A stretch of DNA of 64,000 nt from an uncultured Chloroflexota bacterium (GTDB lineage Bacteria > Chloroflexota > Dehalococcoidia > CAUJGQ01), in the NCBI GenBank assembly GCA_937879875.1, contig CALFMN010000021.1, positions 65,249 through 129,248 on the forward strand. The letters run 5' to 3'. The notes beneath the pieces are model-generated. The model saw nothing but the letters and a program-made list of their open reading frames with translations, was not told the DNA's origin and made no database searches. Both the position numbers and the translations under genes were made by a program. This document shows positions 6,799-58,872 of this stretch, piece after piece. Position 1 is the first letter of the stretch, and each line of letters opens with the position of its first letter.

Positions 6799-7215
6799 TG
6801 TACAGGCACGTCCCAATGGCGCGATCCTTCGCAATCCAGCCACAGGCCGGCAGAGCCGGGGCGAGCGCGCCGCGTCCGCACGGTTGCGGCACGGTGGACA
6901 TAAATCGCTCGCGTTTACTCCCATTTTCTCGCCTTTTCGTATGCGAGTCCGGGAATTGTGTAACATCCATGTTTCGCGCCGGCCGGCTGGCCGGACCACG
7001 GGAACCCGTTCCATTCCCGCCAACGTACGCCGTCTGCCCTGGTTGGGCCGGCGCGGTTATGGCCTGTTTCACGGTCGGGGTCCGAGCCGCGCCGCCGCCA
7101 CCGTCGCCGTCGTCATGCTACGGTGGGGAGCGTCGCGCCCGGCACCCGGCGCGTCCCCTAAAAAATTGCCGGCCCGCGCGGGCGAAGCGACGTGCGCGGG
7201 CCGAGAGGAGTGCGC

Positions 7216-7750
7216 CATGACCCTCGTGGAGTTCATTCAGGCGGAGCTGCTGCGGCTGCACGAGCTGCTGGAGCGCGGCGTCGCCGATCTTTCGCCGCAG
7301 CAGTGGCACGCGGTGCCCGGTGGCGCCGCGGGCAAGGCGAACACGATCGCCTTCGAGCTCTGGCACTACGCGCGCACGGAAGACAACATCGTGCGCTTTA
7401 TCTTGCAAGGCCGGCCAACGGTCTGGATGGACGGCGGCTGGGCGGCGCGGCTGGGCCTGCCCGAGCGGGCGCAGGGCACCGGTATGCCGACCGACGACGC
7501 GCACGCCCTGCGCATCGCCGATCTGGACGGCTTCAAGCAGTACAGGCACGCTGTCTGGGCCAGCACCGGCGAGTATCTTGCGAACCCCGACGAAGCGACG
7601 TTCAGCCAGCCGAAGCTGGTGAAACCGCTGGGCGAGATGCCGGCGATCCGCGCCCTCGGCCAGGTCTGCATGACGCACGGCTTCACCCACCTTGGCGAGC
7701 TGGAGCTGTCGCGCACGCTGCTCGGCCTCGGCCCGGCGATCGGCATCTAA
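7216..7750 (+). CDS. DinB_2/YfiT-like (DinB superfamily) protein
   Basis: ATG at 7216. 177 aa. Paralogous (about 45% by eye) to the 23033..23608 product: shared LWHYARTEDNIVRFILQ / AWHWIRTEDNVVNFVLQ and C-terminal HG..HLGE.. motifs. Confidence 0.7.
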
Positions 7751-7751
7751 A

Positions 7752-7925
7752 CGAGACTGCGGCCCTCTATCCCCCTTCCCCTTTCTCCCAATCCTGGGAG
7801 AAAGGGGCGATCCCGGGTTAGAGCGATCCGATCTGCGAACGGCTAACCGCAAACCGATCGGATCGCCCGACGCGGGGTCGCCCCTCGCCCAGGATTGGGC
7901 GAGGGGACGGGGGTGAGGGCCGACT
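7752..7925. repeat. Interspersed palindromic repeat, family 2 (arms GGCCCTCACCCCC...CCCCTTTCTCCCAATCCTGGGAGAAAGGGGCGATCC), full copy
   Basis: Each arm is itself a hairpin (cccctttctccca/tgggagaaagggg). The two arms are inverted copies around a roughly 45-bp core. Full copies also at 30703-30880 and 57950-58125. Confidence 0.8.
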
Positions 7926-8090
7926 GCCGCGCCGCGCGCCGAAGAAGCCACGGCGATATGTCAGAAAGCGCACCGAAAGGTTCGTGCTGGTGCTTGTTAG
8001 ACGCCCTTAGGCGCTGTACCGTAAAGGCTGGCCGGCGATCGCGTCGCGCACGCGGTGGCCTGCGGGAGAGCACTCGCGACGGAGGTGCGC

Positions 8091-8591
8091 ATGGGGCAGG
8101 AGGAGCAGCAGACACCCGCGGAAGAGCTCTGGTGGCTGCTGATGCAGGTGGGCACACTGGTGCGGCGCGTGGCGGAGCGTCGGCTCTCGTCGGCGCGCAG
8201 TTCGCCCGACCAGGTGCAGGCGCTGCAGGCGATCGCCGCGCGCCAGCCGCTGACCGTGGGAGAGATCGCCCGGGCGATGGGTCTTGAGCGCAACAGCGCC
8301 TCGCAGCTGGTGGAGCGGCTGGTACGGCAGGGGCTGGTGGAACGCGAACGCTCGCTGAGCGACCGCCGGCAGGTCTTCGTCACAGTCAGCCATGCCGGGC
8401 GCTCGGCGATCGAAGCCTCGGCGCCGTCGATCCGCGCCCTCGCGGATGAGCTGCTCGGCGCGGTTAGTGAGGCGCAGATCCGCGAAGCCGCCGAGGCCCT
8501 GCGCGCCATGCGCGACAGTGCCGGCACGCTGCTGCAAGGTACCGGCGCCGACGCGGAGCCTGCGCCGATCGAAATCTCCGCCGCCGGCTAA
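8091..8591 (+). CDS. MarR family transcriptional regulator
   Basis: wHTH region ...LTVGEIARAMGLERNSASQLVERLVRQGLVERERSLSDRRQVFV... typical of MarR. ATG at 8091. Confidence 0.8.
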   Translation: MGQEEQQTPAEELWWLLMQVGTLVRRVAERRLSSARSSPDQVQALQAIAARQPLTVGEIARAMGLERNSASQLVERLVRQGLVERERSLSDRRQVFVTVSHAGRSAIEASAPSIRALADELLGAVSEAQIREAAEALRAMRDSAGTLLQGTGADAEPAPIEISAAG

Positions 8592-8680
8592 CGACACTGG
8601 CCTAGGATTGGCGTGCGGGCCAGCGCACGCGATCATCGTGACCTTCGGCGCGGTCTGTCCGCCCGCCGCCCTTCCCGTCG

Positions 8681-9247
8681 CTAGGTCAGCGGCCAGCGGC
8701 GCAGGGCGGGGAAGCGCTCGGCGAGCATGCGGTCGAGGCCGTAGAAGCGGCCGGCGCTGGTCAGTGCCAGCGCCAGGCAGGGGATGAACTCGGTCCAGTA
8801 GTCCCAGACAAAGTCGGCGTCGCCCTGGCCCCAGCGCGAGAACCAGATGTGCGCCGTCATCAAAAGGCCGGCGATCGCCAGCGCCGGCGTGAAGGCGCCC
8901 AGCACCAACCCCAGCCCGACCGTCAGCTCGCCCAGCCCGACCAAATGGCCAAAGATGTTCCAGTGCGGCACCAGCACGTCGAGCACGAGGCGCTTATACG
9001 GCTCGATCGGGTGGTGCTGCACGTTTGACTGGATGATGCCCTTCGCGCCGTTGTAGTCGATCAGGAAGCCCGGCAGCGGATGCAGGTGCTCAAGGCCGAA
9101 CAGCTTGCTCAGGCCGTTGCTGAGGAAGACGAGGCCGAAGAGCACGCGCAGAATCAGCAGACCCCAGGCGAGCAGGCGTGTCCGAAGTACGGCATCGCCC
9201 GCACTTGCCGCCGGTCCGGGAATCGCGATCACGTCACTGGACTGCAT
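8681..9247 (-). CDS. DoxX family membrane protein
   Basis: Four predicted TM helices. LRVLFGLVFLSNGLSKLFG motif typical of DoxX. ATG at 9247 (MQSSDV). Confidence 0.7.
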   Translation of the reverse strand: MQSSDVIAIPGPAASAGDAVLRTRLLAWGLLILRVLFGLVFLSNGLSKLFGLEHLHPLPGFLIDYNGAKGIIQSNVQHHPIEPYKRLVLDVLVPHWNIFGHLVGLGELTVGLGLVLGAFTPALAIAGLLMTAHIWFSRWGQGDADFVWDYWTEFIPCLALALTSAGRFYGLDRMLAERFPALRRWPLT

Positions 9248-25990: not shown

Positions 25991-28807
25991 ATGGCCGAAC
26001 TGCCGACTGGCACGCTCACCTTTCTCTTCACCGACGTGGAGGGCAGCACGCGCCTGTGGGAGCGGCACCCGCAGGCGATGCGCCGGATCATGGCCCGTCA
26101 CGACGCGCTGCTGACCCAATGCTTCGAACAACACAAAGGTGTCGTCGTGCGCCCGCGTGGGGAGGGCGACTCGCTGTTCGCCGTCTTCATGCGGGCGAGC
26201 GATGCCGTCACCGCGGCACTCGAAGGGCAGCGCGTGCTGCTTACAGAGGATTGGGGCGCGATCGGGCCGCTGCGGGTGCGCATGGGCTTGCACACGGGCG
26301 AGGCGGACCTGCGCGCGGGGGACTACTACGGCAGCGCCGTGAATCGCTGCGCCCGCATCCGCGCCGCCGGCCACGGCGGCCAGGTGCTGCTCTCCGAGGC
26401 GACGGCGAAGCTCGTGCGCGAAACGCTGCCGGACGGCGCAACGCTGCTGGACCTCGGCCGGCACCGGCTGCGCGACCTGAGCGAGCCAGAGCAACTGTTC
26501 CAACTCATTGCCGCAGACCTCCCCGGCACGTTTCCACCGCTGAAGACGTTGGAGAGCCGGCCCAACAACCTGCCGCTGCAGCTCACCAGCTTCGTCGGTC
26601 GCGGGCGCGAGCTGGCCGAGCTTGCAAGCCTGCTGAAAACGGCGCGTTTGGTGACGCTCACTGGCCCCGGCGGCACCGGCAAAACGCGGTTGGCGCTGCA
26701 CGTCGCCGCTGGGCTGCTGGACGGCTTCTCCGATGGCGTGTTCTTTGTGGACCTGGCGTCGCTGCAGGATCCGGCGCTCGTGCCCGCGGCGGTCGCCCAG
26801 GCCCTCGGTGTCCAGGGCCTGCCGGAGGTGTCGGCCCGCGAGAGCGTGCTGCGCTTCCTCCGGGACAAACAGGTGCTGCTCGTGCTGGACAACTACGAGC
26901 ACCTGTTGGCAGCGGCTGAATTCGCAGCGGCGCTGCTTCAGGCGGCGCCGGCGGTGCGCCTCCTCGTGACGAGCCGCGCGCCGCTGCGGGTGACCGGCGA
27001 GCGGGAATATGCGGTTGCGCCCTTGCTGGCGCCGCAGGAGCGCGTGCACTCGGCAGCGGAGCTGGCGCAGAATCCGGCAGTGCAACTCTTCGTGCAGCGG
27101 GCACAGGCCGTGCGAGCCGACTTCGCGCTGAGCGATGCAAACGCCTCGACCGTGGCGGCCACCTGCGCACGGCTGGACGGCTTGCCGCTGGCGCTCGAAC
27201 TGGCGGCGGCGCGGATGCGTGCGTTGCCAGTGGCAGCGCTGCTGGCGCGATTGGAGCAGCGCTTGCCGATCTTGACGGGCGGCGCACGGGACGTGCCGGC
27301 GCGCCAGCAGACGTTGCGGGACGCGATCGCCTGGAGCTACGCCCTGCTTGAGCCGGCGGAGCAGCGCTTGTTCCGACGGGTTGGCGTGTTTGCCGGCGGC
27401 TGTACGCTGGCGTTGGCGGAGGCCGTCTGCACCGCCGACGGCGACCTCGGCCTCGACGTGCTGGACGGCGTCGGTTCGCTGGTGGAGAAGAGCCTGCTGC
27501 GCGAAGTCGACGGCCAGGCGGGAGAGCCCCGCTACCGCATGTTGGAGACCATCCGCGAGTTTGCCCTCGGGGAGCTTGAGGCCCATGGCGAAGCGGAGGC
27601 TGTACGGCGGCACCTGGCGGTGCAGGTGTTACAGCTGGTCCGACAGGCCGCCGTGGCGGGTGCCCAGGAGCGCCTGGACGTCGACCTGGATAATGCCCGG
27701 ACCGTGCTGGGGTGGTGCGTCGAACACATGGAGTTGGCGGTGGGGGTGCGATTGTTCTGGGCGTTGCGCTGGTATCTGCACTACCGTGGACTCGGAAAGG
27801 AGCTCAACCTGTGGCGCCAGCGCCTCCTCGCCCTGCCGGACGCCTCGGCGCCGAGCGTTTCTCGGGCGCGGCTGCTTGGAATCACGCTGTTTGACCCGCT
27901 CTCCCTCGCCGAACAGGAGCGCGCGGTGCTTGAGCTCGAGGAAGCCATTGGCCTCAGTCGTGCCCTGGGCGACGCGTCCTGCCTCGCCGATGCGCTCCAA
28001 CACCTTGCGGTGCTGCGGATGAGTCAGGGCCGGTTTGACGCGCTGGTGCCGCCGGCAGAAGAAGCGCTCCCGCTGTATCTCGCAGCGGGAGCGCCACAGG
28101 CCGCTGCCTCTATGCAGCTCTTCCTGGTTCATGCCGCGCTTTCCCGCGGCGATATCGCCACCGCAGAAGCGCTGGTCGCGGCCAATCGGGCGCTCGAGGG
28201 CACGAAACGCTCGTCGCCCGGCCTATCAGCGGAGTCCGCGCTCGCAGAGGCGCACGGCGACCATGGGCGGGCGCGGGTGTTCCTGGAGGAGTCGGCTCGA
28301 GCGGCGGCCGCGTTACAGGGGGAGCAGAGCCCTGACAGACTGGCCCGCCTCGCCATGCTCGTGCAGGTCACCCTGCGCCAAGGGGACACGCGGGGCGCGG
28401 TGGCACGCTGCACCGAGAGTCTCGCCGTGGAACGCCGTGTGGGGCCCTCGCGCTTTCTGGCGGCGGTCTTGACGGTGCTCGCCCAGGCGGCGGAGCGCTG
28501 TGGCCGGCTGCCCGCCAGCGCACGGCTGTTGGCCGCCGTCGACGGGCAACGGCGAACGTTCGCCGTGGAGGTGCCGGGCGTGCAGGAGGCGCAGCAGGCG
28601 GCGGTGGCGCGGGTGCGGGTCGCGCTGGGCGAGGCGGCGTTCGCCGAAGCGTGGGCGGTGGGCGAGGCGCTTGCTCCGGAGGAAGCCATCGAGCTTGGCC
28701 TGGCTGTTGCCGGGGAGCTGGCGGCCGGCCCAGCGGCCCTCATCCTCACCCCCGTCCCCTCTCCTTCTCCCAATCCTGGAGAGAAGGAAAGGGGCGATCC
28801 GGCGTGA
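25991..28807 (+). CDS. Signal-transduction protein: class III adenylate/guanylate cyclase domain + STAND (NB-ARC/AAA) NTPase + TPR-like repeats
   Basis: N-terminus LTFLFTDVEGSTRLWE...GDS.FAVF...R.G.HTGE (CHD cyclase). Walker A GPGGTGKTRLAL. hhhhDN Walker B (LLVLDNYEH). Helical repeat C-terminus. The last about 20 codons are encoded by a family-2 repeat. Confidence 0.85.
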   Translation: MAELPTGTLTFLFTDVEGSTRLWERHPQAMRRIMARHDALLTQCFEQHKGVVVRPRGEGDSLFAVFMRASDAVTAALEGQRVLLTEDWGAIGPLRVRMGLHTGEADLRAGDYYGSAVNRCARIRAAGHGGQVLLSEATAKLVRETLPDGATLLDLGRHRLRDLSEPEQLFQLIAADLPGTFPPLKTLESRPNNLPLQLTSFVGRGRELAELASLLKTARLVTLTGPGGTGKTRLALHVAAGLLDGFSDGVFFVDLASLQDPALVPAAVAQALGVQGLPEVSARESVLRFLRDKQVLLVLDNYEHLLAAAEFAAALLQAAPAVRLLVTSRAPLRVTGEREYAVAPLLAPQERVHSAAELAQNPAVQLFVQRAQAVRADFALSDANASTVAATCARLDGLPLALELAAARMRALPVAALLARLEQRLPILTGGARDVPARQQTLRDAIAWSYALLEPAEQRLFRRVGVFAGGCTLALAEAVCTADGDLGLDVLDGVGSLVEKSLLREVDGQAGEPRYRMLETIREFALGELEAHGEAEAVRRHLAVQVLQLVRQAAVAGAQERLDVDLDNARTVLGWCVEHMELAVGVRLFWALRWYLHYRGLGKELNLWRQRLLALPDASAPSVSRARLLGITLFDPLSLAEQERAVLELEEAIGLSRALGDASCLADALQHLAVLRMSQGRFDALVPPAEEALPLYLAAGAPQAAASMQLFLVHAALSRGDIATAEALVAANRALEGTKRSSPGLSAESALAEAHGDHGRARVFLEESARAAAALQGEQSPDRLARLAMLVQVTLRQGDTRGAVARCTESLAVERRVGPSRFLAAVLTVLAQAAERCGRLPASARLLAAVDGQRRTFAVEVPGVQEAQQAAVARVRVALGEAAFAEAWAVGEALAPEEAIELGLAVAGELAAGPAALILTPVPSPSPNPGEKERGDPA
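28742..28805. repeat. Family-2 repeat, solo hairpin arm (cccgtcccctctccttctcccaatcctggagagaaggaaaggggcgatcc)
   Basis: Overlaps the 3' end of CDS 25991..28807. Confidence 0.6.
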
Positions 28808-28974
28808 AGCGTTCCGGAGGGCGTCGGGCCAGCAATCGCCTGTAGGGGCGCACGGCGTGCGCCCTTCGCGGCCAAAGCCGCGCCCAACGGCGCGCCGGAT
28901 AACCCGGTGCTCTTGTGGATCGCCGCAACGCCAACCATCTCCATCAACCTGCTAACCCGGCGCCCTTTCGGATC

Positions 28975-29040
28975 GCTTCATGCCGGATCGCCCCTTTCCC
29001 TCCAGAATTGGGGGAAAGGGGACGGGGGATGGAGGGCCAG
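28975..29040. repeat. Family-2 repeat, solo arm in opposite orientation (gatcgcccctttccctccagaattgggggaaaggggacgggggatggagggcc)
   Basis: Lies upstream of the 29083 start. With 28742-28805 it brackets about 170 bp. Confidence 0.6.
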
Positions 29041-29082
29041 CCGCGCTATGATGGCGCTGCGTTTCTGCTCAGGAGCTACGCC

Positions 29083-30690
29083 ATGACGACGCTGCACACC
29101 ACCAGCCGCACGCTACCGCGGTTCACGTTGCAGGACGGCGAGGGCCGCGAGCGCCGCTTCCCCAGCGGCCGCCATGCCCTGCTCTGCTTCGTGAAAGAGG
29201 ACTGTCCCACCTGCCGTCTCTCGATGCCGCTGGTCGAGGCGGCGCACCGCGCCTTCGGCGAGGCGCTCGACATCTGGGCGATCGGCCAGGACGAAGCGGG
29301 CAACGCGAAGCTGGTGGACGAGTTCGGCCTCAGCGTCCCCATGCTGGACGACACGGCGCTGAAGGTTTCGTACGCCTACGACCTCGACACCGTGCCCACG
29401 GTGATCCTTGCGGACGGCAGCGGCGCCGAACAGCGGCACTTCGTCGGCTTCGATAAGGCCGACTGGCTGGATCTGGTGCGCGCGCTGGCGCGGCTGGCGG
29501 GCGGCGCGGCGCCGGCGGTCGATTGGGCGTCCTATCCCGAGTCGCGGCCGGGCTGCGGCTCGAAGTCGGTCGAGCCGGGCATCGCCGAGCGGCTGGCGGC
29601 GGAGGCCGAGGGCAGCCCGCTGCGGGCGCGGCGCATCGAGGTCGGCGAGGGCGACGACGTTTTCGAGTTCATGTTCGACCAGGGGCTGACGGACGGCCTG
29701 CCCGTGGTGCCGCCCACACCGGAGCGGGTGCTGCGTATGCTGCACGGCACACGGCGCGATCCGCAGGAGGTTGTAGCCGTGGTGCCGCCGAACATGGCGC
29801 CGGCCACGGTCGAGAAGGTCGCGGCCAACGCGGTGCTGGCCGGCTGCAAGCCCGCGTACCTGCCTGTCGTGATCGCCGCGCTTGAGGCCGTCTGCACCGA
29901 TACATTCAACATCCACGGCGTGAACGCCACGACCTGGGCAGCCAGCCCGGTGATCGTCGTCAACGGCCCGATCCGCGACCGCATCGGCATGAACTACGGG
30001 CTGATGGCGCTGGGCTACGGCAACCGCGCCAACGCCACGATCGGCCGCGCGCTGAAGCTGTGCATCCGCAACCTCGGCGGCGCCAGGCCGGGCGGCGTCG
30101 AACGCTCGGTGCTCGGCTCGCCGGGCAAATACACGATGTGCTTCGCCGAGCACGAGGCGCGCAGCCCCTGGCAGCCGCTGCACGTGGAGCGCGGCTTCCG
30201 CCCGGAACAGAGCGTGGTCACCGTCTTCGGCCTCGAAGTCTCGCCCCGCCACATCGCCGACCAGACCTCGCGCACGGCGCGGCAGCTCGGCGGCAGCCTC
30301 GGCCTGGGCCTTGAGGCGTGCTGGCTGCCGAAGGCGCACGGCCAGGGCGATGTGCTGCTCGTCGTCTGCCCCGAACACGTTGATACGCTCTGGCGCGACC
30401 GCTGGACCAAAGCGCAACTGCGCGAGCGCATTCAGGAGATCACGTCGCGGCCCGTGCGCGAGCTGCTGGCGGACGACGAAAGCGGCGAAGGCATTCCCCG
30501 CTCACGCTTCGGTCCGGGTGGTCCGAGCGAGGAGGAGCTAAACCGGCGCATTCCCAAGTTCCGCTCGCCGGAGAACATCCACATCGTCGTGGCCGGCGGC
30601 GAGGGCGGCAAGTTCTCCTCGGTTTTCGCCGGCTGGGTCAGCGGCCCGACAGGTTCGTCCTCCGTCAGCCGCGTGATCGAAGAGGTGTGA
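29083..30690 (+). CDS. Fusion protein: N-terminal thioredoxin-fold (redoxin/AhpC-TSA-like, CPTC active site) + about 400-aa uncharacterised C-terminal domain
   Basis: AGGAGC RBS 7 nt before ATG 29083. ...ALLCFVKEDCPTCRLSMP...DIWAIGQDE...VPTVILADG typical of a TlpA/ResA-like Trx fold. The C-terminal domain (HGVNATTWAASPVIVVNGP...GNRANATIGRALKLC) was not recognised. Confidence 0.7.
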   Translation: MTTLHTTSRTLPRFTLQDGEGRERRFPSGRHALLCFVKEDCPTCRLSMPLVEAAHRAFGEALDIWAIGQDEAGNAKLVDEFGLSVPMLDDTALKVSYAYDLDTVPTVILADGSGAEQRHFVGFDKADWLDLVRALARLAGGAAPAVDWASYPESRPGCGSKSVEPGIAERLAAEAEGSPLRARRIEVGEGDDVFEFMFDQGLTDGLPVVPPTPERVLRMLHGTRRDPQEVVAVVPPNMAPATVEKVAANAVLAGCKPAYLPVVIAALEAVCTDTFNIHGVNATTWAASPVIVVNGPIRDRIGMNYGLMALGYGNRANATIGRALKLCIRNLGGARPGGVERSVLGSPGKYTMCFAEHEARSPWQPLHVERGFRPEQSVVTVFGLEVSPRHIADQTSRTARQLGGSLGLGLEACWLPKAHGQGDVLLVVCPEHVDTLWRDRWTKAQLRERIQEITSRPVRELLADDESGEGIPRSRFGPGGPSEEELNRRIPKFRSPENIHIVVAGGEGGKFSSVFAGWVSGPTGSSSVSRVIEEV

Positions 30691-30702
30691 GTGCGGCCGG
30701 CG

Positions 30703-30880
30703 CGCTCGGCCCTCTATCCCCCTACCCCTTTCCCCCAATCCTGGAGGGAAAGGGGCGATCCTGGGTTGGAGCGATCCGATACTGGGCAGGGTTAACCGTG
30801 CCGGCCACGGAACGCCCGACCCAAGATCGCCCCTCGCCCAGGATTGGGAGAGGGGAAGGGGGTGAGGGCCGACGCCCGCG
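30703..30880. repeat. Family-2 palindromic repeat, full copy
   Basis: ggccctctatccccctacccctttcccccaatcctggagggaaaggggcgatcc ...core... gatcgcccctcgcccaggattgggagaggggaagggggtgagggcc. Confidence 0.8.
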
Positions 30881-30962
30881 CACGCCCCAGCATTTCGCCG
30901 TACACTAAGGCCGGTCCGCGCATAGTCGTGCGCCGGGCGCCAGCAGCCAGCGGGAGGATAGG

Positions 30963-31481
30963 ATGACGACCCTCATCGACCCCACGGACGAACGTGTGCC
31001 CATTCGCCGGCAGCTCACGCGCCGGCCGGAGGCGATCACCGGCACGGTCGCGTTGCTGGACATCAGCAAGCCGCGCGGCGACGTGCTGATCGCGGAGCTG
31101 GAGGCGCGCCTTGCCGAGCGGCTGCCCGCGGTCACAATCAAGCGCTACAAGAAGCCAACCTTCACCAAGCCGGCGCCCGACGAACTGCGCCGCGAGATCG
31201 CGCAGGAGGCGGACTTCGTCATCGAAGCCCTTGCCGATTGAGGGTCATGCACGACGTGCAGTGTGCACGACACGGTGTGGTTCGAAATCCAGGGCAAGCC
31301 GAGCGTCTTCGTCGCCTCCAACGTCTTCGTCACCGCCGCCGAGGCACAGTCCGCCGCGCTGGGGCTGCCGGACGTGCGGCGCATCTTCGTCCCGCACCCG
31401 ATCCAGGACGCGGCCGACGACGAAATGCGTGCGAAAGCCGACGCGATCGTGGACGAGGTCATCGCCGCGCTGGTGGACTGA
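30963..31481 (+). CDS. UGSC-family selenoprotein (in-frame TGA at 31239-31241 read as selenocysteine)
   Basis: GGAGG RBS before ATG 30963. ORFs 30963..31241 and 31263..31481 are in the same frame. Read-through gives ...FVIEALAD-U-GSC-TTCSVHDTVWFEIQGK..., matching the eponymous U-G-S-C motif. Small palindromes (cgtgca/tgcacg) lie 10-30 nt downstream of the UGA. Confidence 0.75.
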
Positions 31482-32026: not shown

Positions 32027-33090
32027 TCACGGCGCGATTGCGGGATAGAGATGCTGCAAGCGAATGCGGGCAGCGGCGGTGGTGAAGCGCCAGCGGATGG
32101 CGGTGGTGCCGGCGTTGCGCTCGGCCTCCCAGGCGGCGACCTCAGCGGTGAGCGTGTCGGCATCGGCGATGCGCCGGTCCAGGCACTGGCGGCTGAGGAT
32201 GCTGCACTCAATCTCGGCCATGTTCAGCCACGACCCGTGCGGCGGCGTGTGATGCAGCTCCAGCTTATCCAGCAGGCGCGTGGCCTCGGCCGGTGGGAAG
32301 GCCTGGTACAGCGCCGCCCCACTATGCGTGTTCAGGTTGTCCAGCACCAGCACGAGGCGCTCGGCCTCGGGGTAGTGGACCTCGACCAGGTCTTTGATGA
32401 CGTGGGCGCAGTCGACCGCCGTGCGCCGCGCGGTGACCGTCACGTGCCGCCAACCGGCAAGCGGCTCACAGACCACAAAGAGGTTGGCCACGCCGTTGCG
32501 CACGTCCTCATCGTCCTCGCGGGCGGGCTGGCCCGGCTGGACCGGGCGTGGGGGCTGGACCGCGCCCACCAGGTGCTTGCTGGTCTCGTCCAGACAGACC
32601 TGCGGACGCCGGGGATCCTGGGGCCGGTGATAGACATCCAGCACGTCCTCCAGCTGGCAGACCAAGGCGGCACTGCCCTGCGGCGGCAGGCACCAGCGCG
32701 TGTCTGCCAGGGCTTCAGCACGTTGTTTTGCGCGTGCGCCGTACGGTTTCGTACGCGATCGCCTCGACGAGGTTGAGTTCGACCAGGCGCTGGGCGACCA
32801 GGCGCAAGGTCCAGCCCCTCCTCCACGAAGCGGCGGCGCACGCGCTCGACGGTGTCGCTGCTCACACCGGCGGTGGCGGCGATCGCGGCGTCGAAGCGGC
32901 CGGACTGCCCGGGCGGCGCATCGGCCAGCAGCAGGATGCGGGCGTGCTGGAGCGTGCGGGCGGCATGCGTGCCGCTGTGCAGGAACTGCTGCAGATGCTC
33001 CCGCTCAGCAGAGGTGAGGGTGACACGATAGCGTTTCGTTCGCATGCGCCCAGCATGCCAGCGCCTTACCATAACGGGCAAGGCGGCCGT
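32027..33090 (-). mobile_element. IS630-family insertion sequence (copy 1); transposase broken into N-terminal HTH and C-terminal DDE ORFs by frameshifts
   Basis: N-terminus MRTKRYRVTLTSAEREHLQQF...VSSDTVERVRRRFVEEGLD (IS630 HTH). C-terminus ...DETSKHL...LVLVLDNLNTHS...HHTPPHGSWLNMAEIECSIL...LYP (DDE domain, ORF 32027..32665). At least two frame changes in between. Confidence 0.75.
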
Positions 33091-33094
33091 GATG

Positions 33095-34200
33095 GGGTAC
33101 TAAGCAGGTAGCCCTCGTTATGGTACGTTCGCGGCATGCGCCGCACGACGTTGAGCGACGAGGCACGGGCCGCGCTCCAGGCGGCCCGCCACGACTCTGG
33201 CTGGAGTCCGCGGGAGCGCGACCGGGTGGCGATGGTGCTGCTGTCGGCGGCGGGCTGGTCGCCACCGCGCATCGCCGGGCACTTCGGCTGTTCGGTGCAG
33301 CCAGTGCGTACGGCGCTCGACCAGTACGCGGCCAGCGGCCTGGACGGGTTGCGCCACCGGCGGCCCGGCCCGCCGCCCAACGCCGCGCGACGCACGCAGG
33401 TGACGGCAGCGTTGACGGCGCTGCTGGAGCAAGACCGTAGCTGGACGGCGGCGCAGCTGGCAGCCGCGCTCGACGAGCAGGACATCCGGCTCAGCACGCG
33501 CCAGACGCGCACGTAGCTGGGCGGGATCGCCGCCTGGCGGCGCACCGTGCGCACCCTGGCGCACAACCAGGCCCCGGTCAAGGTCGCCCGGGCCGAGCGG
33601 CACCTTGGGGTGCTGCAAAAACAGGGGGCGCCGGCCGGGCCACGCTCTGCGATCGCGACGGTTGTGGCGTCAGCCCCAGCCAGCCGGTGAATTACCGTTG
33701 GACGCTGGTCGGGCAGCGCAAAGCCGTGCCCGACGAGAACCCCTGTGGGCGGCGCCTGCACGTGCTGGCGGCGCTGGTGTGCGACGGTCCCCATCCCAGC
33801 CTGACCTGGGACATGCAGCCACGCACGCTGCGGGCCAGCGACCTGCGCGCCTTCCTGCCCGGCATCCCCCGCCAGCCGGACACGCCGCTGGTCGTGGTGC
33901 TGGACAACGCCGGCAGGCAGCGCCGCAAGGCCGGGCAAGCAGCCGTGCCCGCGCTGTGGCGCCAGGGGCATCTATCTCTACTACCTGCCGCCCTCCAGTC
34001 CGCAGCTCAACGCGCTTGCGCGCGTCTTCGGCGTGATCAAGCCGTACGACCTACCCGAACGACGCTATGCCACCGATACCGCCCTGGAGGAGGCACTCGA
34101 TGCCGCCTTTACCCGCTACGAAACCCGACTCCTCGCGAAAACGACCCCACAACCGGGGCTAGCTGCTTAGGCTGTAAACTGGACGAGGGGCTTTCGGCCC
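33095..34200 (+). mobile_element. IS630-family insertion sequence (copy 2, distinct member), transposase interrupted by in-frame TAG (33514) and TGA (33690) plus frameshift
   Basis: MRRTTLSDEARAALQ...GWSPPRIAGHFGCSVQPVRTALDQYAASGLDGL (HTH). Later ...LVVVLDNAGRQRRK... and, in another frame, ...YLYYLPPSSPQLNALARVFGVIK...TRYE. Head-to-head with copy 1. Confidence 0.7.
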
Positions 34201-34226
34201 CATTATCCGAACCGATCCTCAAAAGA

Positions 34227-34349
34227 TGACTACAGTGCCTGGCGTCTTTGCTGCCGGCGACATCACGCGTTCCGCCCACAATGCGACCTGGGCAAGCGCC
34301 GATGGCGTCACTGCCGGCATGGCCCTGCACCGCTCGCTGGTCTTCTGAT
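34227..34349 (+). pseudogene. C-terminal 40-aa fragment of an FAD-dependent pyridine nucleotide-disulfide oxidoreductase (thioredoxin-reductase-like)
   Basis: MTTVPGVFAAGDITRSAHNATWASADGVTAGMALHRSLVF* is the canonical C-terminal GD-FAD motif. No N-terminal part remains; it is directly flanked by IS630 copy 2. Confidence 0.5.
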
Positions 34350-38029: not shown

Positions 38030-39805
38030 GGTGAAGGCGAGCCGGTGACGCTAGCGACGTGATGCCAACCACGATCGACGCCGCTGACCTCCTACCCACT
38101 GGCTCGTAGTTCCGTGTCGAGGCGCTGAGCCGCACGGCGGACGCGAGCACCCTGCCCCTCACCAGTCCCCAACCGACCGCGGCCTGCCTGCGGTGCCGCG
38201 CGCCCTCGGCCGCCGTCCATAGTCGCTACCAACGCACGCTCGCCGACCTGCTCTGGGTCCGCCTACCCGTACGCCTCGACCTCCACGTCCGCAAGTTCTT
38301 CTGCCGCGTCTCCACCTGTACGCGGCAGATCTTCACCGAGCGGCTCCCCACGCTCGTTGCCCCCTCTGCGCGGCGCACGCTGGGCCTGACCGCAGCGCTC
38401 TGGCTGGTGGCGCTGGCCCCTGGTGGCGCAGCGGGCGCCCGGGTCGTCGCCGGGTTGGTGATGGGCACGAGCCCTGACACCTTGCTGCGGCTCATTCAGA
38501 CCGCGCCAATCAGCAACCGCGAGCCGACCCGCGTGCTGGGCATCGATGATTGGTCCTGGCGCCGCGGCCTGCGCTTCGGGACGATCCTCGTCGACCTCGA
38601 ACGGCATTGCCCGGTGGACCTCCTGCCCGATCGTGCGGTCGAGCCCATCGTGGCATGGCTGAAGGCGCATCCCGGTATTGAAGTCATCAGCCGCGACCGC
38701 GCCCAGTGCTACGCCGAGGCGGCCAGGCAAGGGGCACCGGATGCCGTGCAGGTCGCCGACCGCTGGCATCTCCTCAAGAATCTGGCGGAGGCGCTGGAGC
38801 GCTGCCTGCTGCGCGCTGCCAGCAGCCGGAAAGTGGCCGCCCAGCACACCGCCGACCGCGACCCGCCGCTCCAGAGTTACCCGGACGCGGACTGCGTCCC
38901 CTGGGAACAGCGGGCCGAGGAGGCCAGCCAGGCGAAGCACCAGGCAGCCGTGGAGCGCTATCAGCGCATCCGCAGCCTGCATGCCGCCGGGGCCGACATC
39001 GCCGACATCGCCCGCACCGTCGGCGTCTCCCGCGTCACGGTGTATCGCTATCTCCGGCTCACGGCGCTTCCTGAACGAAAACATTCCCGCTGCCGGCGGC
39101 CAGTGCTGGACCCCTACAAGGACTACCTGCTGCGCCGCTGGGAGGAGGGCTGCCACGTCAAACTCACCCTCTTCCGCGAAATTCAGGCGCAGGGCTATGC
39201 CTTCTCGGCGACGAACGTCTTCCGCTTCCTCAACCGGACGGCGCGAGCGCGGAGCCGCGACCCGGTCCAGGTCGTCCCACCCCCGGCCAGCGCCGTGCCC
39301 ACGGCGCGCCAGGTCGCCGGACTGTTCGTCGCCCGGCCCGAGCGGCTGGCGAAGGACGACCGGGCCTCTCTCACGCGCTTGACGGCTGGGGAGCCGAGCC
39401 TGGCAATGGCGTATGCCCTCACCCAGGCGTTCGGCCGCATGCTGCGCGAGCGTCAGGGCGAGCAGCTCGATGACTGGCTCACGCAGGCGAAAGCGAGCGG
39501 GGTGAAGGAGCTGGCCGCCTATGCCTGCGGCCTGGAAGCGGACGAGGCGGCGGTCACGGCGGGGCTGACGCTCGCCTGGAGCAACGGCCAGACCGAGGGC
39601 CACGTCCATCGCCTGAAGTTGCTCAAGCGCCAGAGCTACGGTCGCGCCGGCTTCGATCTCCTGCGCCGGCGCGTCCTGCTCGCTGCGTGAGCGATCAGCG
39701 CAGGCGCGACGCGGTTGACCGTTGCCTGCTCACCGCGATTCACCAAAAGACCGGAAGACCCAGCATCATTTGGCGAGGTGTGCAACGCCGCTCGCTCTTC
39801 GCCCT
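38030..39805 (+). mobile_element. ISL3-family insertion sequence; transposase 38062..39690 carries an in-frame TAG at codon 16 (38107-38109)
   Basis: MPTTIDAADLLPTGS*FRVEAL...PTAACLRCRAPSAAVHSRYQRTLADL (zinc-finger N-terminus) ...LGIDDWSWRRGLRFGTILVDLERHCPVDLLPDR...W.NGQTEGHVHRLKLLKRQSYGRAGFDLLRRRVL (ISL3 C-terminus). Imperfect terminal IRs GGTGAAGGCGAGCCGG (38030) / CCGCTCGCTCTTCGCC (39788). Confidence 0.75.
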
Positions 39806-42577: not shown

Positions 42578-44128
42578 CTACTGGGTGACGGGTGACGTCG
42601 TCACAACCGTCTTCCAGGGGCCGGCGGGAACGTTCTGCGCATCGATGAACTGCCAGTCGACGTGGTCGTTGTCGCCGTCGAGTTCCGCGTAGCCCAGGCA
42701 GCCGTTCAATGCGGGGCTGACATCGAGGCCGGCGTCGTTGAACTGACCCTGGACAGGACGGGCATCCGTGCTGCCGAAGACGTAGGTTGCGTCATGGTAG
42801 AGGCTGCCGTGCGACGGTCCGGCGTCCTCGATCTGGCCGTAGCAGGTGTGGCCGTTGGGACCGACGATCTCGACCCAGTGGTTCTTCATGTAGCTGAAGT
42901 TGCCGTCGGAGCAGTGGGCGCCGGTCGGGTCGAGCTGCGTTGCCCACGGTATCACCTGGCAGCGCTCGGCGAAGGCGGTCGGGTCGTTGAGATCATCGAA
43001 AGGGAGATCGAGATAGAACGGATTTTCATGCGGTGTGGCGTGTGTGGGGAAGTAGCCGTTCGTCGCGCTGCGCGCTTCGGTCTGGCATGTGAACATGGCA
43101 AGGGTCGTGCCAGAAGGAACGCCATCACAGCCGCCCACGGGCGAGCCGGTGCAGCCGGTGTCCGGAGAGGGCCCCATGTTTATGCCGCCCGACCAGTGCA
43201 TGGCCCACTGGCTGTCGTATGCGCTGCACACCTGGCTGCCATCGCTCAGGCTGGCATTGAAGATCTCGCCCACCCAGAATGTCGTGCTGACGATGTTCGT
43301 ATGCCACGGATAGCCGCCCGATGCAGGGCTCGGACTCGGCGACGGGGTTGGCGTCGGGGTCGGGCTGGGGCTCGGACTTGGCGTTGGGGTTGGGGTGTGC
43401 GTCGGCGTGGCCGTCACCGTGGGCGGTTGCGTGGCAACTGCCGTTGCCGTGGCCGTCGGCGGTTTGGTCGGGGCCGCCGTCGCGGTTGTAGTCGGTGAAC
43501 TGGTCGCCGAGGGCGGGGCAGACGCCGTGGCTGTGGCCAGCAGCGGCGTACTGCCCGCGGTGAGTGCGATCTGATCGACGTACATCGGCGGCTCGGCCTT
43601 GCCGCTCTCGTCCTGGATGATGATGCCGCCCACCGTCTTGTTCACGCCGCCGAGGGCGCTGAGCGGGATGCTGTAGAGCTTCCATGAGCCGGCGATCGGC
43701 TGGCCGCCGTAGGTGCTGTTCAGCTTCACCACCGGGCCGAGTGGATTGTCATGCACATCTTCGAGCACGACCGAGACCGCCTGCCCGGCTTGCGTCGCCT
43801 CCAAGGCGAAGCTGAGGTTCGCGAAGGGGCTGCTGCTCACGCCGGTGTCGCTATGCAGATAGAGGCCGCCCCACGCCGCCTTCACCGTCCAGGAGATCGC
43901 CTTCGTGCCACTGTAGACCGGGGCGGAGACGCCGTAGTTGACGCTGGAGTCCCAGGACCAGTTCACCCAGCCAGGCGCCAGCGCATCGCCGTAGGCCATG
44001 AAACTTGTGGTCGAGGCCGAGGCCGTGACCCCGGAGCCGCCGGCGCGGGCGCCGAACAGCGCCGCGCCCACCGCCGCCGCCACGACCGCGGTCGCGCCGA
44101 CGTTCCGTAAAACCGACCCGCCACGCAT
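42578..44128 (-). CDS. Secreted protein: signal peptide + about 160-aa beta-sandwich-like module + Pro/Thr/Ser linker + uncharacterised Cys-rich C-terminal domain
   Basis: GGAGGA RBS before ATG 44128. N-terminal module YGDALAPGWVNWSWDSSVNYG..YSGTKAISWTVKAAWGGLYL... is homologous to the 4x repeated module of 44576..47773. Linker [24 protein letters not shown]-terminal domain has 8 Cys. Confidence 0.75.
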   Translation of the reverse strand: MRGGSVLRNVGATAVVAAAVGAALFGARAGGSGVTASASTTSFMAYGDALAPGWVNWSWDSSVNYGVSAPVYSGTKAISWTVKAAWGGLYLHSDTGVSSSPFANLSFALEATQAGQAVSVVLEDVHDNPLGPVVKLNSTYGGQPIAGSWKLYSIPLSALGGVNKTVGGIIIQDESGKAEPPMYVDQIALTAGSTPLLATATASAPPSATSSPTTTATAAPTKPPTATATAVATQPPTVTATPTHTPTPTPSPSPSPTPTPTPSPSPSPASGGYPWHTNIVSTTFWVGEIFNASLSDGSQVCSAYDSQWAMHWSGGINMGPSPDTGCTGSPVGGCDGVPSGTTLAMFTCQTEARSATNGYFPTHATPHENPFYLDLPFDDLNDPTAFAERCQVIPWATQLDPTGAHCSDGNFSYMKNHWVEIVGPNGHTCYGQIEDAGPSHGSLYHDATYVFGSTDARPVQGQFNDAGLDVSPALNGCLGYAELDGDNDHVDWQFIDAQNVPAGPWKTVVTTSPVTQ

Positions 44129-44575
44129 GAAGCTTCCTCCTCGGCGGTCGTGCCACCGCCGCCATGGCCCGACAGCGGCTGAACAGACCGTGAGGAGGTC
44201 TGCGCCTTCGGCAACCCGGCTGCCTGTGCCGTTCCGCTGGCGTGCCGCCAGGGAAACGACCGAAGGCCCGTGGCTTTGCGTCCCCGCCTTTCGGCGGGTT
44301 TGCCTTTGTCGGACGTTCTGTAAAGCGACCCGGCAGCCGGTGCTACCTGTGGTCCAGGTGCAGTAATCGCGTGGCCGCGGGTGCTGCAAGAGGGTTGCCG
44401 GACAGTGGTGGGCCGGGCGTTACTGAAATGTTACAACCGGCAAACGGACCATCGGCCCGCCGGCAGAGGTCTTCCGCGGACAAACGAATCGGCCCGAAGC
44501 CCGGTGACGGGCTTCGGGCCGGCGCCGTTGCCAGCGTTACGGCGAGAGCAGGTCCGTGGAGAGGGCGCTGGCCTG

Positions 44576-47500
44576 CTACTTGAACTGGATGTCGTCGATA
44601 TAGACGGCTGGCTGCGCCGCGCCCAGCGCATCCTGGAAGACGATGCCCATAATCGTCTGTCCGGTACCGTTTAGATCGGACAGCGGGATGGTGTACTGCG
44701 TCCACGAGCCGGTTGCGGGCTGGCCGCCGTAGTTGGCGAGCGATACCAGCTTAATCATGGTGTTGGTAGGATCCACCAGCGAGACATCGTAGGCCTGGCC
44801 GGACTGTGACGCCTGCGCCCAGAAGCTGAGCGAGGTGTAGCCCGCCAGGTTCAGGTTGTTCCAGGTCCATGGGTAGAGCGCGCCCCATGCTGCCGTAATC
44901 GTCGCCGAGATCGAGTGCGTGCCGCTGTGCACAGGGCTGGTGTTGGCGTAGTTGACGGTCGCGTTCCAGGATGAATCGCCCCAGCCGGTTGCCTCTGCGT
45001 CATCGTACACAACAAACGTCGGGATCGCGGTGGGACTCGGCGTCGGGCTCGGCGTCGGGCTCGGCGTGGGGCTCGGCGTCGGCGTCGGGCTTGGCGTCGG
45101 GCTTGGTGTTGGCGTCGGCGTGGCGGCCGGTGTGTTGTCGAACTTGATGTCGTCCAGGTAGACGGCCGGCTGCGCCTTGCCCAGCGCGTCCTGAATAACG
45201 AAGCCCTGAATCTGCTTGCCCACGCCGTTCAGGTCGGTGAGCGGGATGATGTACTGCTTCCACGAGCCGGTTACGGGCTGGCCGCCGTAACCGGTGAGCG
45301 ACACCGACTTGATCATCGTGTTGGTCGTGTCCACCAGGCTGGCGGCGTAGGCCTCTCCTGAGGCGCTGGCCTGTGCCCAGAACTGCAGGTTGGTGAACGG
45401 CGTCGTGTTGAGCGGCGGGGCGGTGGAGGCATAGAAAGCGCCCCACGCCGCCGTCACCGTCAGCGAGATCGAGTCGGTACCCGTGTGCACGGGGCTGGTG
45501 TTCAGCAAGTTCGTCGAGGCGCTCCACGACGAGTTCGCCCAGCCGGGAGCCAGGTGGTCGTCGTAGACGGTCAGCTTGCCGGGCGTGTTGGGCGTGGGCG
45601 TAGGAGTACTGATCGCCGGGCTGGTCAGGGCGACATCGTCGATGTAGACGTTGGACTGGGTCTTGCCAAGTGCATCCTGCAGGACGATGCCCGTGATCTG
45701 CTGATGGTTCGGGTTCAGGTCAGAGAGCGGTACCGTGTACTGCTTCCAGGCGGTGCTGACCGGCTGGAAGCCGTAGTCAGCCAGCGTAAGCAGCGGCATC
45801 TGGCGGTTGAGCTGGTCGACGAGGCCGATGTCGTACGCCTGGCCGGACTGGCTGGCCTTCAGCCAGAAGCTGAGCGCGGTGTATGGCGACGGGTCGATCG
45901 GCAGGCCGTCGTACAGATAGAGCGCCCCCCAGGCGGCTTTGATGTTCATCGAGATCGACTTCGTGCCGGCGTGCACCGGGCTGGTGTTGGCGAAGTTGAT
46001 CCCCGCGTTCCAGGACTCATTGCCGAAGAGGCCGTTCACGGCGTCGTCAAAGATCGTCAGCGTACCCGGCGTCGGGTTTGGCGTTGGCGTGGGCTTCGCG
46101 TTGCAGTTCGACAGCGGCGTGGCGGCCGTTGCGATGAACGCGTCGAGAATGTTGGTGGTGACCTTCTGCAGCGCTGCGCTGACGGTGTGCGCCTGGTACG
46201 TGTTGCTGTCGAGCTTCCAGGCCCAGTAGATCGTGCCCGCGTTGAAGACGTAGGCGCCGCTGCACGCCGTGTAAATGGTGGAGTTCGACGTGTCGGCGTT
46301 GTTCCACGCGTCTTTGGTGGGCGAGTTGGAGAGCACGGTCAGATTCTGCGGCTGCAGGCCGTTGGGATAGACCTTGTCCCACTCGTAACCGACGACGCCG
46401 GTGACCTTGGAACCGTTGGCTAGGCCGCTGCCGGTGAAGACCCAGTTGCTGGCGTTGCTCACCACCCAGGGGAAGGCGGGGTCGGTTGTGGTGTAAGCAG
46501 GGCTGTACATGCCGCCGAGGAAGGCGTTTTCGGGCTGGCTGACGGGCGACTGGCGCCATTGCACGGTCGTGAGCCCGGGTGTGGCGGCTTCGACCGGATC
46601 CTGTGTCGCATCGCGGTAGCAGACGATCACGCGGTTGGCGACGCCCGCGGCGTTCGCTTCCCAGCGGATCTGCCAGTACATGGAGTTGGCATCGAAGAAA
46701 GCGAGGTGTACGCCGGCATCGCGCGCCGCGATGATGTTGGTGCGCATCTGCTGCGACCAGTACTCGTCGTGCCACGGTGAGATGAAGGCCTTATGGCCCG
46801 AGAGCAGCGAGGGGTTGGTCTGCACGTCGGTGCTGGTGACGTAGGTGATGTTGTAGTTCTTCGACTCGATGAAGCGAATGAAGCCGTAGTCGCCGTCGAA
46901 GAGGTCGCCGGCGCCGGCGTAGTCGGAGTACGGCCGGTCAAAGGAGGCCTTGACTGCCTGTGGGCCGGTCGAGTTGAAGGCGTACAGACTCTTGCCGCCC
47001 CAGTTGTTGTACGCCTGGTAGGTGGCGACCGGCAGCTCGTACACCAGCGGCGCCGTGCTGCTGTCGTCGCGCACCACGAAGATCAGGTAGCCGACATCGC
47101 TGCTTGCCGCGGTCAGCTTGACCAGGTAGACGCCCGTGGTCCAGGCGGTGGTGGTTTGCAGGGTGTAGGAGACCTGCCAGTTGGTGGCGATCAGGCCAGT
47201 CGTCGGGTCCGGCGTGGGCACGGCCTGGTTTTGGCCCGTCAGGTTGGCCACTGAGGTGACGAGGGTAGAGCCGGCCCCCGCGTACCAGCCGATGCGGTAG
47301 ACATCAAGATTGTAGGTCGGCTGGGCCGTGCTGACGTAAAAGGAGACCGCATCGCCGTGGTTGATGCTCGTGGCGGAGGCGTAGCCGCGGATCACCTGGT
47401 CGGTCCAGCAGTCGGTGCCGCAGGTGGAAGCGTCGACCGCGTCGTACTCCGCATCGCTGGCGCTGTCCTTGCCGGGCTTGTGCGGGTTCGCCTTCGGCGC

Positions 47501-47773
47501 CTTGTCGATCTCGTCATCCTGGTCATTCAGGTGACGGCCGCGACCCCTGTCAAGCTCCTTGGAGCCGAAGTTCGTCGTGCCGGGCTTGAGATTCTCGTCG
47601 TGAATCGGGTTGGACTCGTTGTGCGGCTTGAGCTGGGGCGCTGGGCCGGAACCCGGGGTACCGGCGGCTACCTGACTGCTGCCCGAAGCGCCGGCAAAGG
47701 CGATGCCAACGGCGATCAAGCAGAACAGGAGTCCGAGGGCATGAACAGGCCGGAGTCGCGCAAAGATCTTCAC
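44576..47773 (-). CDS. Large secreted multidomain protein: signal peptide, about 500-aa N-terminal domain (possibly DmfA2/N,N-dimethylformamidase-large-subunit-like), then 3 tandem about 165-aa modules separated by Pro/Thr linkers
   Basis: GTG 47773 preceded by GAGGTG. Signal peptide [28 protein letters not shown]-terminal domain carries [13 protein letters not shown]. Modules share ..DD...GW.NSSWNA..N.ANTSPVH.GT.SIS....AAWGALY... Linkers [10 protein letters not shown] / [10 protein letters not shown] / (PTPS)n. Confidence 0.8.
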
Positions 47774-48397
47774 AGCGGAGCACCTCACACAATACCTACA
47801 AAACGCGGCGAGCTACCAAATTTTGCTCATCTCCCATCTGATGAAGCCCGGGGCCGGGCGCGCGGCGCCTCGCATGGGATGCTTGTTACAGGTTCTTCGA
47901 ACCTTAACCGAATGTCAACCGTGAAGTGTTGCAGGGGGATAACACTCCTGTTGCAGGTTTGGCAGATGTACATATGGTTGCGTCGGTTGCCGCCGAAGCA
48001 CTCCCGCCGGCTCAGTGCGCGAGCGGGAACCTGGCCGCTTACTTCTCGCGGATTCTCTCTTTGCCGGCCGCCACACCGCCGCCGTCCGTGCCACCCGCCA
48101 GCGCCAGCACGGCGATCGTGACACCGGCCAGGAGCGCAAGCACAGAGAGCGGGCGGGGGCGATGCGATCGCTTCATGAGAAGGTACCTCTTGCGGTTCAC
48201 AATAGAAGAACGCTGCCGGTTACAAGATCGCCGCTACAAAAGGGCGTCGATGCGCCGACCCTACATTAGTATTGATAGAGATTCGCAGACTCTTAACCGA
48301 TTGTCAACGATGAGCGTTGCGACCGCGTAACGTTCTTCTTGCATAACGTGCGGCGGCGCCGGACGGCGGCAGGGTCTCGTCAAGCCCGGGCCCGTGG

Positions 48398-58232: not shown

Positions 58233-58625
58233 TTAGTGCGCGTGCGCCAGCTCGGGCGCGACGAGGTGCTCTTCAAGATGCGTGGCCGGCTCGCCGGGGA
58301 ATGTCTCGCTCGAACCGGGCTTCGGCAGCGATCGCAGCACGGAGTCGAGCAGGCCGGGAAAGCGGGTGTCGAGGTCATCGCAGCGCAGGGCATACAGCCG
58401 CGTCGTGCCTTCGACACGAACCGAGACGATCCCTGCCTGCCGCAGCACCTTCAGGTGGTGTGAGAGCGTCGGCTTGGGGATGGGAATGCCCAGCTCGCCG
58501 CAGGGCCGCAGGCTGGTTTGCAGCGCAAGCTGCTGCACCACGCGCAGACGCACCGGATCGCTCAGCGCATACAGCACGTCGGTCAGCGAGAGATGTTCGC
58601 AAGCAGGATGGAACAGCGTTCGCAT
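58233..58625 (-). CDS. ArsR/SmtB family transcriptional regulator
   Basis: LSDPVRLRVVQQLA...LSHHLKVLRQAGIV. Confidence 0.8.
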   Translation of the reverse strand: MRTLFHPACEHLSLTDVLYALSDPVRLRVVQQLALQTSLRPCGELGIPIPKPTLSHHLKVLRQAGIVSVRVEGTTRLYALRCDDLDTRFPGLLDSVLRSLPKPGSSETFPGEPATHLEEHLVAPELAHAH

Positions 58626-58872
58626 GCCTGCATTCTGGCACGTTACCTCGCGTTCCTCAAATATGCCCGTCCTACGCAGTGCCGCCCGCCCGTTCTGGAG
58701 TCACGAAATGGTAACGACTCGCCGGTCGCGCGATCCGCGCAACGCCGCCGGGCGTACCCCGATCAGGACGATCCCTTCAGCCCTCGATCCGCGCGCCGAT
58801 AACTCATGCGTAGCGCCGCAGAACCGCGGGACGCCAGGGCGGCCGGAATCCTGCTCTCCGGGAGTACCAGCC

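Follow-up and report, generated by a model that had tools for sequence, protein, structure and literature searches.

A probable UGSC-family selenoprotein gene from a Dehalococcoidia bacterium, with a minimal, sequence-frozen SECIS hairpin and a conserved upstream partner

Selenoproteome surveys have recorded a "UGSC-containing protein" from the Sargasso Sea and GOS studies onwards (Zhang & Gladyshev 2008, PMC2398784), and UGSC is curated as a selenoprotein family (NF041046; PMC2398784; PMC13188914). In aquatic metagenomes it ranks with the most abundant selenoprotein families, without known function (PMC2398784, PMC13188914), and reviews from 2022 and 2026 still give it as uncharacterised. The GOS data contained 255 Sec forms versus 21 Cys forms with a UxxC motif, and the protein was called a "likely Trx-like fold" that was once seen fused to a domain termed "Unknown_1" (PMC2398784). 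Bacterial SECIS (bSECIS) elements are heterogeneous. The published model describes a loop of 3-9 nt, an upper stem of 4-16 bp, a loop-to-UGA distance of 16-37 nt and a minimum free energy (MFE) of -7.5 kcal/mol or lower, with G in the first two loop positions and usually G[G|U] at the loop start (PMC13188914).

The window, a 64-kb stretch of DNA of an uncultured Dehalococcoidia bacterium (Chloroflexota) analysed as a whole, holds a complete UGSC-family gene on its forward strand at 30963..31481, with 172 codons including Sec. It is a regular member of the family and an ordinary copy of it, sharing the U-G-S-C motif, the Sec/Cys dichotomy, a length of about 170-180 aa and an environmental, mostly uncultured distribution. 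It differs in its Dehalococcoidia lineage and in a repeat-filled spacer of 272 nt that separates it from a partner gene upstream; nothing else sets this copy apart. Three features are new: a very small SECIS with a frozen sequence, a partner gene kept across Sec and Cys forms, and a fold predicted to be other than thioredoxin. They provide handles for finding the function of UGSC. We put the probability that 30963..31481 is a Sec-decoded UGSC gene at roughly 0.9.

Two open reading frames make up the locus. The first, 30963..31241, starts with ATG, encodes 92 aa and ends in TGA 31239-31241, while the second, 31263..31481, starts with GTG, encodes 72 aa and lies in the same frame. A sequence-only reading of this DNA had proposed that the two are split only by this TGA; the sequence, the ORF list and the translation confirm that it is the sole interruption of the frame 30963..31481 (+). 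Reading through it yields a product of 172 aa and about 19 kDa (...EADFVIEALAD-[UGA]-GSCTTCSVHDTVWFEIQG...) that ends at the stop TGA 31479-31481, as given by translation and profile matches, and places the putative selenocysteine at residue 93. A Shine-Dalgarno-like GGGAGGA (30952..30958, +), read from the sequence, lies 4 nt 5' of ATG 30963, and inspection found no comparable ribosome-binding motif 5' of GTG 31263. The motif itself is U93-G-S-C96-T-T-C99, within the pattern U-x-x-C-x-x-C-x-x-H-D. The U-G-S-C assignment made earlier stands; the "CxxC-like TTCS" that accompanied it does not, as the CxxC element is C96-T-T-C99.

The juxtaposition of the two frames was assessed by a composition screen, run on both strands of the window, for TGA codons flanked on each side by at least 45 stop-free codons, with GC3 of at least 0.80 and GC2 of at most 0.58. 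TGA 31239 is the single match in 64 kb, with coding-like sequence on both flanks. Although a GC content of 70% makes long spurious ORFs abundant, this sole match indicates that the arrangement is not due to chance.

Membership in the family, the earlier assignment, holds over the full length of the protein in both curated models. With U written as C, the product scores 162.3 bits against NF041046, "UGSC family (seleno)protein" (cut-off 125; profile positions 4-146 of 147), and 162.6 bits against PF24696, "UGSC" (cut-off 25; positions 2-171 of 172). D92, G94, S95, C96, C99, H102 and D103, all present in the window protein, are invariant columns in up to 61 sequences.

In public gene calls the gene is broken into its two ORFs of 92 and 72 aa, both of which match the UGSC Pfam model, and the exact products are stored as separate unnamed or "hypothetical" proteins whose cluster mates come from Dehalococcoidia MAGs. 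These two public ORFs should be annotated as one selenoprotein gene. A protein search returned 3330 relatives among 5.8 billion proteins. Among the best 120 listed, most close relatives measure 94-100 aa and match no more than the first 53% of the query, having been ended at the TGA by the same mis-call. Cysteine takes the Sec site (ALAD-C-GSCTSC) in P0025, P0118 and more than 100 further proteins, P0241-P0358. A few full-length database homologs have W or G there. One further full-length homolog (P0004, JGI, 58% identity) has Arg at this position, ALAD-R-GSCTSC, perhaps through a genuine change to CGA, perhaps as an artefact of translation.

A scan of species-representative genomes yielded at least 599 matches, and the best 80 loci were analysed. 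The closest of them, with up to 78% identity, belong to Tepidiformaceae and other Dehalococcoidia; the rest are from Gamma- and Alphaproteobacteria, Binatia, Myxococcota and Acidobacteriota. TGA occupies the aligned codon in all 80 species genomes and in three assemblies of the window organism (83 of 83 loci), with the frame kept on both sides. None of the 80 loci has a stop in the 76 codons 3' of the TGA, and the median pN/pS against the window is 0.31 in these 76 codons, compared with 0.40 in the 60 codons before it. Being free of stops and low in pN/pS, the part after the TGA must be translated and under purifying selection. In seven Cys-form loci from unrelated genomes, the Sec codon is replaced by TGT or TGC. 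The alignment of Sec and Cys forms that the sequence-only reading had called for thus gives TGA in the close orthologs and Cys in the more distant homologs, in agreement with a Sec position at this UGA. That reading had also named homologs all terminating here as evidence against itself; what follows the TGA in 80 of 80 loci is conserved, stop-free coding sequence.

These data bear directly on the view that the locus is a pseudogene or an assembly or sequencing error, in which a Cys-type UGSC gene carries a nonsense mutation and either a 92-aa fragment or nothing is made. Such a defect would fit the calling of two separate small ORFs in three metagenomes and one NCBI assembly, and also the lack of visible Sec machinery in the window. 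It does not fit the same TGA in 80 of 80 species-level genomes from several phyla (the best 80 of at least 599), the stop-free and constrained codons downstream, or the identical sequence, TGA included, in three independent metagenome assemblies (L001-L003). In addition, the hairpin and frozen synonymous codons described below occur in TGA forms only. Both versions of the defect fall because the codons beyond the TGA are translated and purifying selection acts on them; TGA conservation effectively refutes them, and we regard them as extremely improbable.

Directly 3' of the UGA, the coding sequence contains a conserved apical SECIS hairpin at 31255..31269 (+), supported by RNAalifold and by frozen synonymous sites. 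It consists of CGTGCA (31255-31260), GTG (31261-31263) and TGCACG (31264-31269), which form a 6-bp stem, CGUGCA/UGCACG, closed by a GUG loop that begins 19 nt after the UGA. The sequence-only reading had seen this palindrome by eye but placed it at 31254-31268, one base off. Its expectation of a SECIS within about 40 nt 3' of the UGA agrees with what was found: no other structure is conserved across the family, and the palindrome falls within the published bSECIS description.

Codon usage after the TGA shows where selection acts on the nucleotides. The seven codons that precede GTG 31263 encode G-S-C-T-T-C-S, and these amino acids are invariant in 81 TGA-form sequences. Codons +1 to +4 use their synonyms freely (Cys+3, for example, is TGT in 42 and TGC in 39 of the 81 sequences), while codons +5 to +8 are frozen: Thr is ACG in 79 of 81 and ACA in two, Cys is TGC and Ser is AGT in all 81, and Val is GTG in 42 of 42. 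The remaining 39 sequences have Leu at codon +8, read as TTG or CTG. AGT, the frozen codon of Ser+7, is rare at other Ser columns. In the seven Cys-form loci the hairpin motif is absent and the same codons vary freely.

The same codons weigh on the idea of two genes, in which a 72-aa product initiated at GTG 31263 joins the 92-aa one to form a split protein and no read-through occurs. An in-frame GTG does stand seven codons after the TGA, and ORF finders list the 72-aa ORF. This GTG has no ribosome-binding motif, and half of the homologs have TTG or CTG (Leu) at its position. Furthermore, a start at the GTG would leave out G-S-C-T-T-C-S, the most conserved residues of the family. Since these residues are invariant while unconstrained third positions vary, their codons are translated. 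The Cys-form homologs, finally, are single polypeptides. A pair of separately started proteins has next to no probability on this evidence.

RNAalifold on 77 distinct sequences returns a single consensus structure, the 6-bp stem with a 3-nt G-U-N loop. Five of the six stem pairs are invariant, and the only variable one is GC in 47, GU in 28 and AU in two sequences and is never broken. Covariation is thus limited to one pair with two double changes. The frozen synonymous sites prove selection at the nucleotide level, not pairing as such. What carries the SECIS call is that selection on the nucleotides is seen in TGA forms only, and that its position and shape are those expected of such an element.

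Compared with the bSECIS model, the window hairpin has a 3-nt loop, GUG, with G-U at loop positions 1-2, a 6-bp stem and a spacing of 19 nt, all within the described ranges. At -7.4 kcal/mol, the MFE of the 19-nt mini-hairpin narrowly misses the -7.5 criterion; a 43-nt element reaches -15.5 kcal/mol. Against shuffled sequences the 43-nt fold has a z of about 0, which is not distinctive at 70% GC, and energy was dropped as evidence. Rfam SECIS families gave no match at the gathering threshold in the whole window, nor at E <= 10 in 31150-31400; given the heterogeneity of bSECIS elements, this miss is not evidence against SECIS function.

The hairpin resembles the bSECIS prototype of E. coli fdhF in its position within coding sequence directly 3' of the UGA and in its small G-U apical loop. 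The apical element of fdhF, UGCA-GGUC-UGCA, is similar to UGCA-GUG-UGCA of the window hairpin. The window hairpin departs from the prototype in three respects: its 3-nt loop is the allowed minimum, there is no evident bulged U, and the lower stem varies between clades. In this organism, a G-U rich extended lower stem is possible at 31242..31283 (+), where the fold has the MFE of -15.5 kcal/mol and the z of about 0 given above, and it is not conserved across the family. A conserved lower stem was considered and rejected, as the pairing registers differ between clades and RNAalifold retains only the apical 6 bp.

These elements suggest a model for expression of the gene. Translation would start at ATG 30963, behind the GGGAGGA ribosome-binding site, and at UGA 31239-31241 the ribosome would insert selenocysteine instead of terminating. 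The hairpin at 31255-31269 would act as a bacterial SECIS by recruiting SelB with GTP and Sec-tRNA(Sec), and translation would run on to TGA 31479-31481. The UGA would be read as Sec because this hairpin, within the coding sequence, is proposed to serve as its SECIS. We infer that Sec decoding in this organism is SelB-dependent. The window itself contributes no part of the machinery: ARAGORN found no tRNA, including tRNA-Sec, in its 64 kb, and Pfam scans of 40 ORFs, which together take up most of it, revealed no SelA, SelB or SelD domains. The remark in the sequence-only reading that sel genes are missing from the window was therefore correct for these ORFs.

The UGA could in principle be read through without selenocysteine, by a near-cognate Trp, Cys or Arg tRNA or by reassignment (codes 4 or 25), and the hairpin would then do no more than stimulate the event. 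The database entries with W or G at the site would suit this, as would the lack of observed Sec machinery in the window. Such W and G entries would be expected if the TGA had been translated under an alternative genetic code, which is their simplest explanation. TGA is the ordinary terminator for 12 of the 34 window genes, which points to the standard code and speaks against reassignment. Homologs without TGA always have Cys, in a U/C-x-x-C redox motif that is the classical Sec/Cys signature, and the hairpin matches the SelB-type SECIS consensus. UGSC is also a curated selenoprotein family (NF041046; PMC2398784; PMC13188914). Read-through with an ordinary amino acid is very unlikely in light of these points, if a little less so than the two readings weighed above.

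The fold predicted for UGSC differs from the expectation in the literature. The AlphaFold model of a homolog 59% identical to the window protein, with Gly at the Sec site (P0001), has a pLDDT of 90.9 and predicts a five-fold beta-alpha Rossmann/flavodoxin-like domain for UGSC. The position of residue 93 in this model is at the N-terminus of a helix, where it opens the U-x-x-C-x-x-C-x-x-H-D motif. The model of this homolog does not have the features of a thioredoxin fold, namely a mixed beta-sheet with CxxC at the N-terminus of helix 1. The prediction is thus that UGSC does not adopt a classical thioredoxin fold, in contrast to the "likely Trx-like fold" of PMC2398784.

A thioredoxin domain is found instead in the product of the gene upstream. 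This partner gene (29083..30690, +; 535 aa), conserved upstream of UGSC, encodes an N-terminal TlpA/ResA-like domain, a thioredoxin fold with a CxxC active site (CPTC), followed by a C-terminal domain of about 385 aa. The C-terminal domain has no Pfam match even at E <= 10, and neither sequence nor fold lists gave a PDB relative. Cys41, Cys44 and Cys255 never vary among 47 homologs of the partner, Cys158 and Cys353 hardly ever, and all five are retained in relatives of 40% identity.

Of the 80 Sec-form loci (the best 80 of at least 599), 70 have the partner directly upstream in the same orientation; all seven Cys-form loci have it too, with a 4-nt overlap between it and UGSC. The pair is thus kept together from Chloroflexota to Proteobacteria, in Sec and Cys versions. 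The ten Sec loci without an upstream partner include a Tepidiformaceae group in which UGSC adjoins a secA-like ORF, judged from its C-terminal sequence. The spacer of 272 nt between the two genes here compares with a few nt or an overlap in most other loci. No other neighbour is consistently conserved among the 80 loci. An acyl-CoA-dehydrogenase-like gene was considered as a third member, occurs in only about 16-23 loci at variable distance and orientation, and was judged not specific. Fusion of partner and UGSC was likewise discarded for these 80 loci, as the long upstream stop-free stretches are out of frame with the partner. In five Dehalococcoidia loci (L065, L068, L076, L080 and L081, at about 6500-8700), one or two extra paralogs of the partner C-terminal domain lie downstream of UGSC; they are 46-55% identical to residues ~155-519, and a full-length partner is present upstream as well.

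The partner differs from TlpA, ResA and DsbE in two ways. It has the additional C-terminal domain of about 385 aa with conserved Cys, and, whereas those proteins are extracytoplasmic and membrane-anchored, it has no N-terminal hydrophobic segment. As read from the sequences, UGSC has none either, so the pair is probably cytoplasmic.

Gene order and motifs suggest a role for UGSC as a selenol/thiol redox centre (U93-x-x-C96-x-x-C99, with the invariant H102 and D103 after it), a role probably played together with the product of the upstream gene. UGSC may exchange electrons with the CPTC thioredoxin domain of the partner. The Cys-bearing C-terminal domain could also trade reducing equivalents with the U/C centre and would carry the substrate chemistry. 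Taken a step further, UGSC and its partner might form a widespread, undescribed two-component cytoplasmic redox enzyme, with UGSC as the Se-dependent carrier and the partner C-terminal domain as the component for catalysis and substrate binding. This is a tentative proposal, to which we give somewhat less than even odds.

The closest functional parallels are among the small selenoproteins that serve multi-subunit reductases as carriers, for example GrdA (glycine reductase) and PrdB (proline reductase); in these systems too, a small Sec redox protein with a U/C-x-x-C-type centre adjoins a larger Cys-rich partner. The likeness is a functional analogy only and not one of membership: UGSC has no sequence relationship to either, and the orientation of the motif and the partners differ. 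Sixty UGSC family members gave no GRDA or GRDB Pfam match even at E <= 10, and a distant sequence link to GrdA, GrdB or PrdB was sought and none was found.

One Cys-form locus (L085/L086, 3576-4532) has a thioredoxin-reductase-like gene (Pyr_redox_2, 318 aa) directly before the partner-UGSC pair, with stop and start overlapping. The gene also adjoins a TctABC transporter and a GntR regulator. Its product is a possible electron donor for the UGSC system, as seen in this one genome.

The surroundings of the gene in the window are rich in repeats. REP-like palindromes of about 30-60 nt, G/C-rich (for example CCCCTTTCCCCCAATCCTGGAGGGAAAGGGG), occur at 28744-28821, 28964-29046, 30700-30769 and 30808-30868; they flank the partner gene and fill the spacer between it and UGSC. 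They also inflate ORF calls, as a 591-aa ORF (28915-30690) and the tail of a 938-aa ORF extend into them. The 938-aa protein (25991-28807, +), encoded immediately upstream of the partner and UGSC genes, combines an adenylate/guanylate cyclase catalytic domain with a STAND NTPase module (AAA_22/NACHT/NB-ARC), to which precomputed matches in the metagenome loci add an HTH_77 domain.

Mobile-element debris lies directly 3' of the UGSC gene, at 32027-34229 and again at 38407-39690. Besides an ISL3 transposase, it includes IS630-family transposase fragments on both strands (DDE_3 at 32027-32665, -; HTH ORFs at 32440-33081, -, and 33136-33516, +). Each of the three metagenome contigs with the UGSC gene ends about 220-290 bp after it, which is consistent with assemblies breaking at mobile-element repeats.

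Further downstream, a c-di-GMP-I-GGC riboswitch aptamer (RF03167; 44206-44313, -) scores 78.1 bits against a gathering score of 59. It is located at the 5' end of a minus-strand ORF without a Pfam match (42578-44389), and the gene for a 1070-aa DMFA2_C/CBM30 protein (44576-47788, -) is found just upstream of it. The window also encodes a PAS-GGDEF diguanylate cyclase, at 58282-59838.
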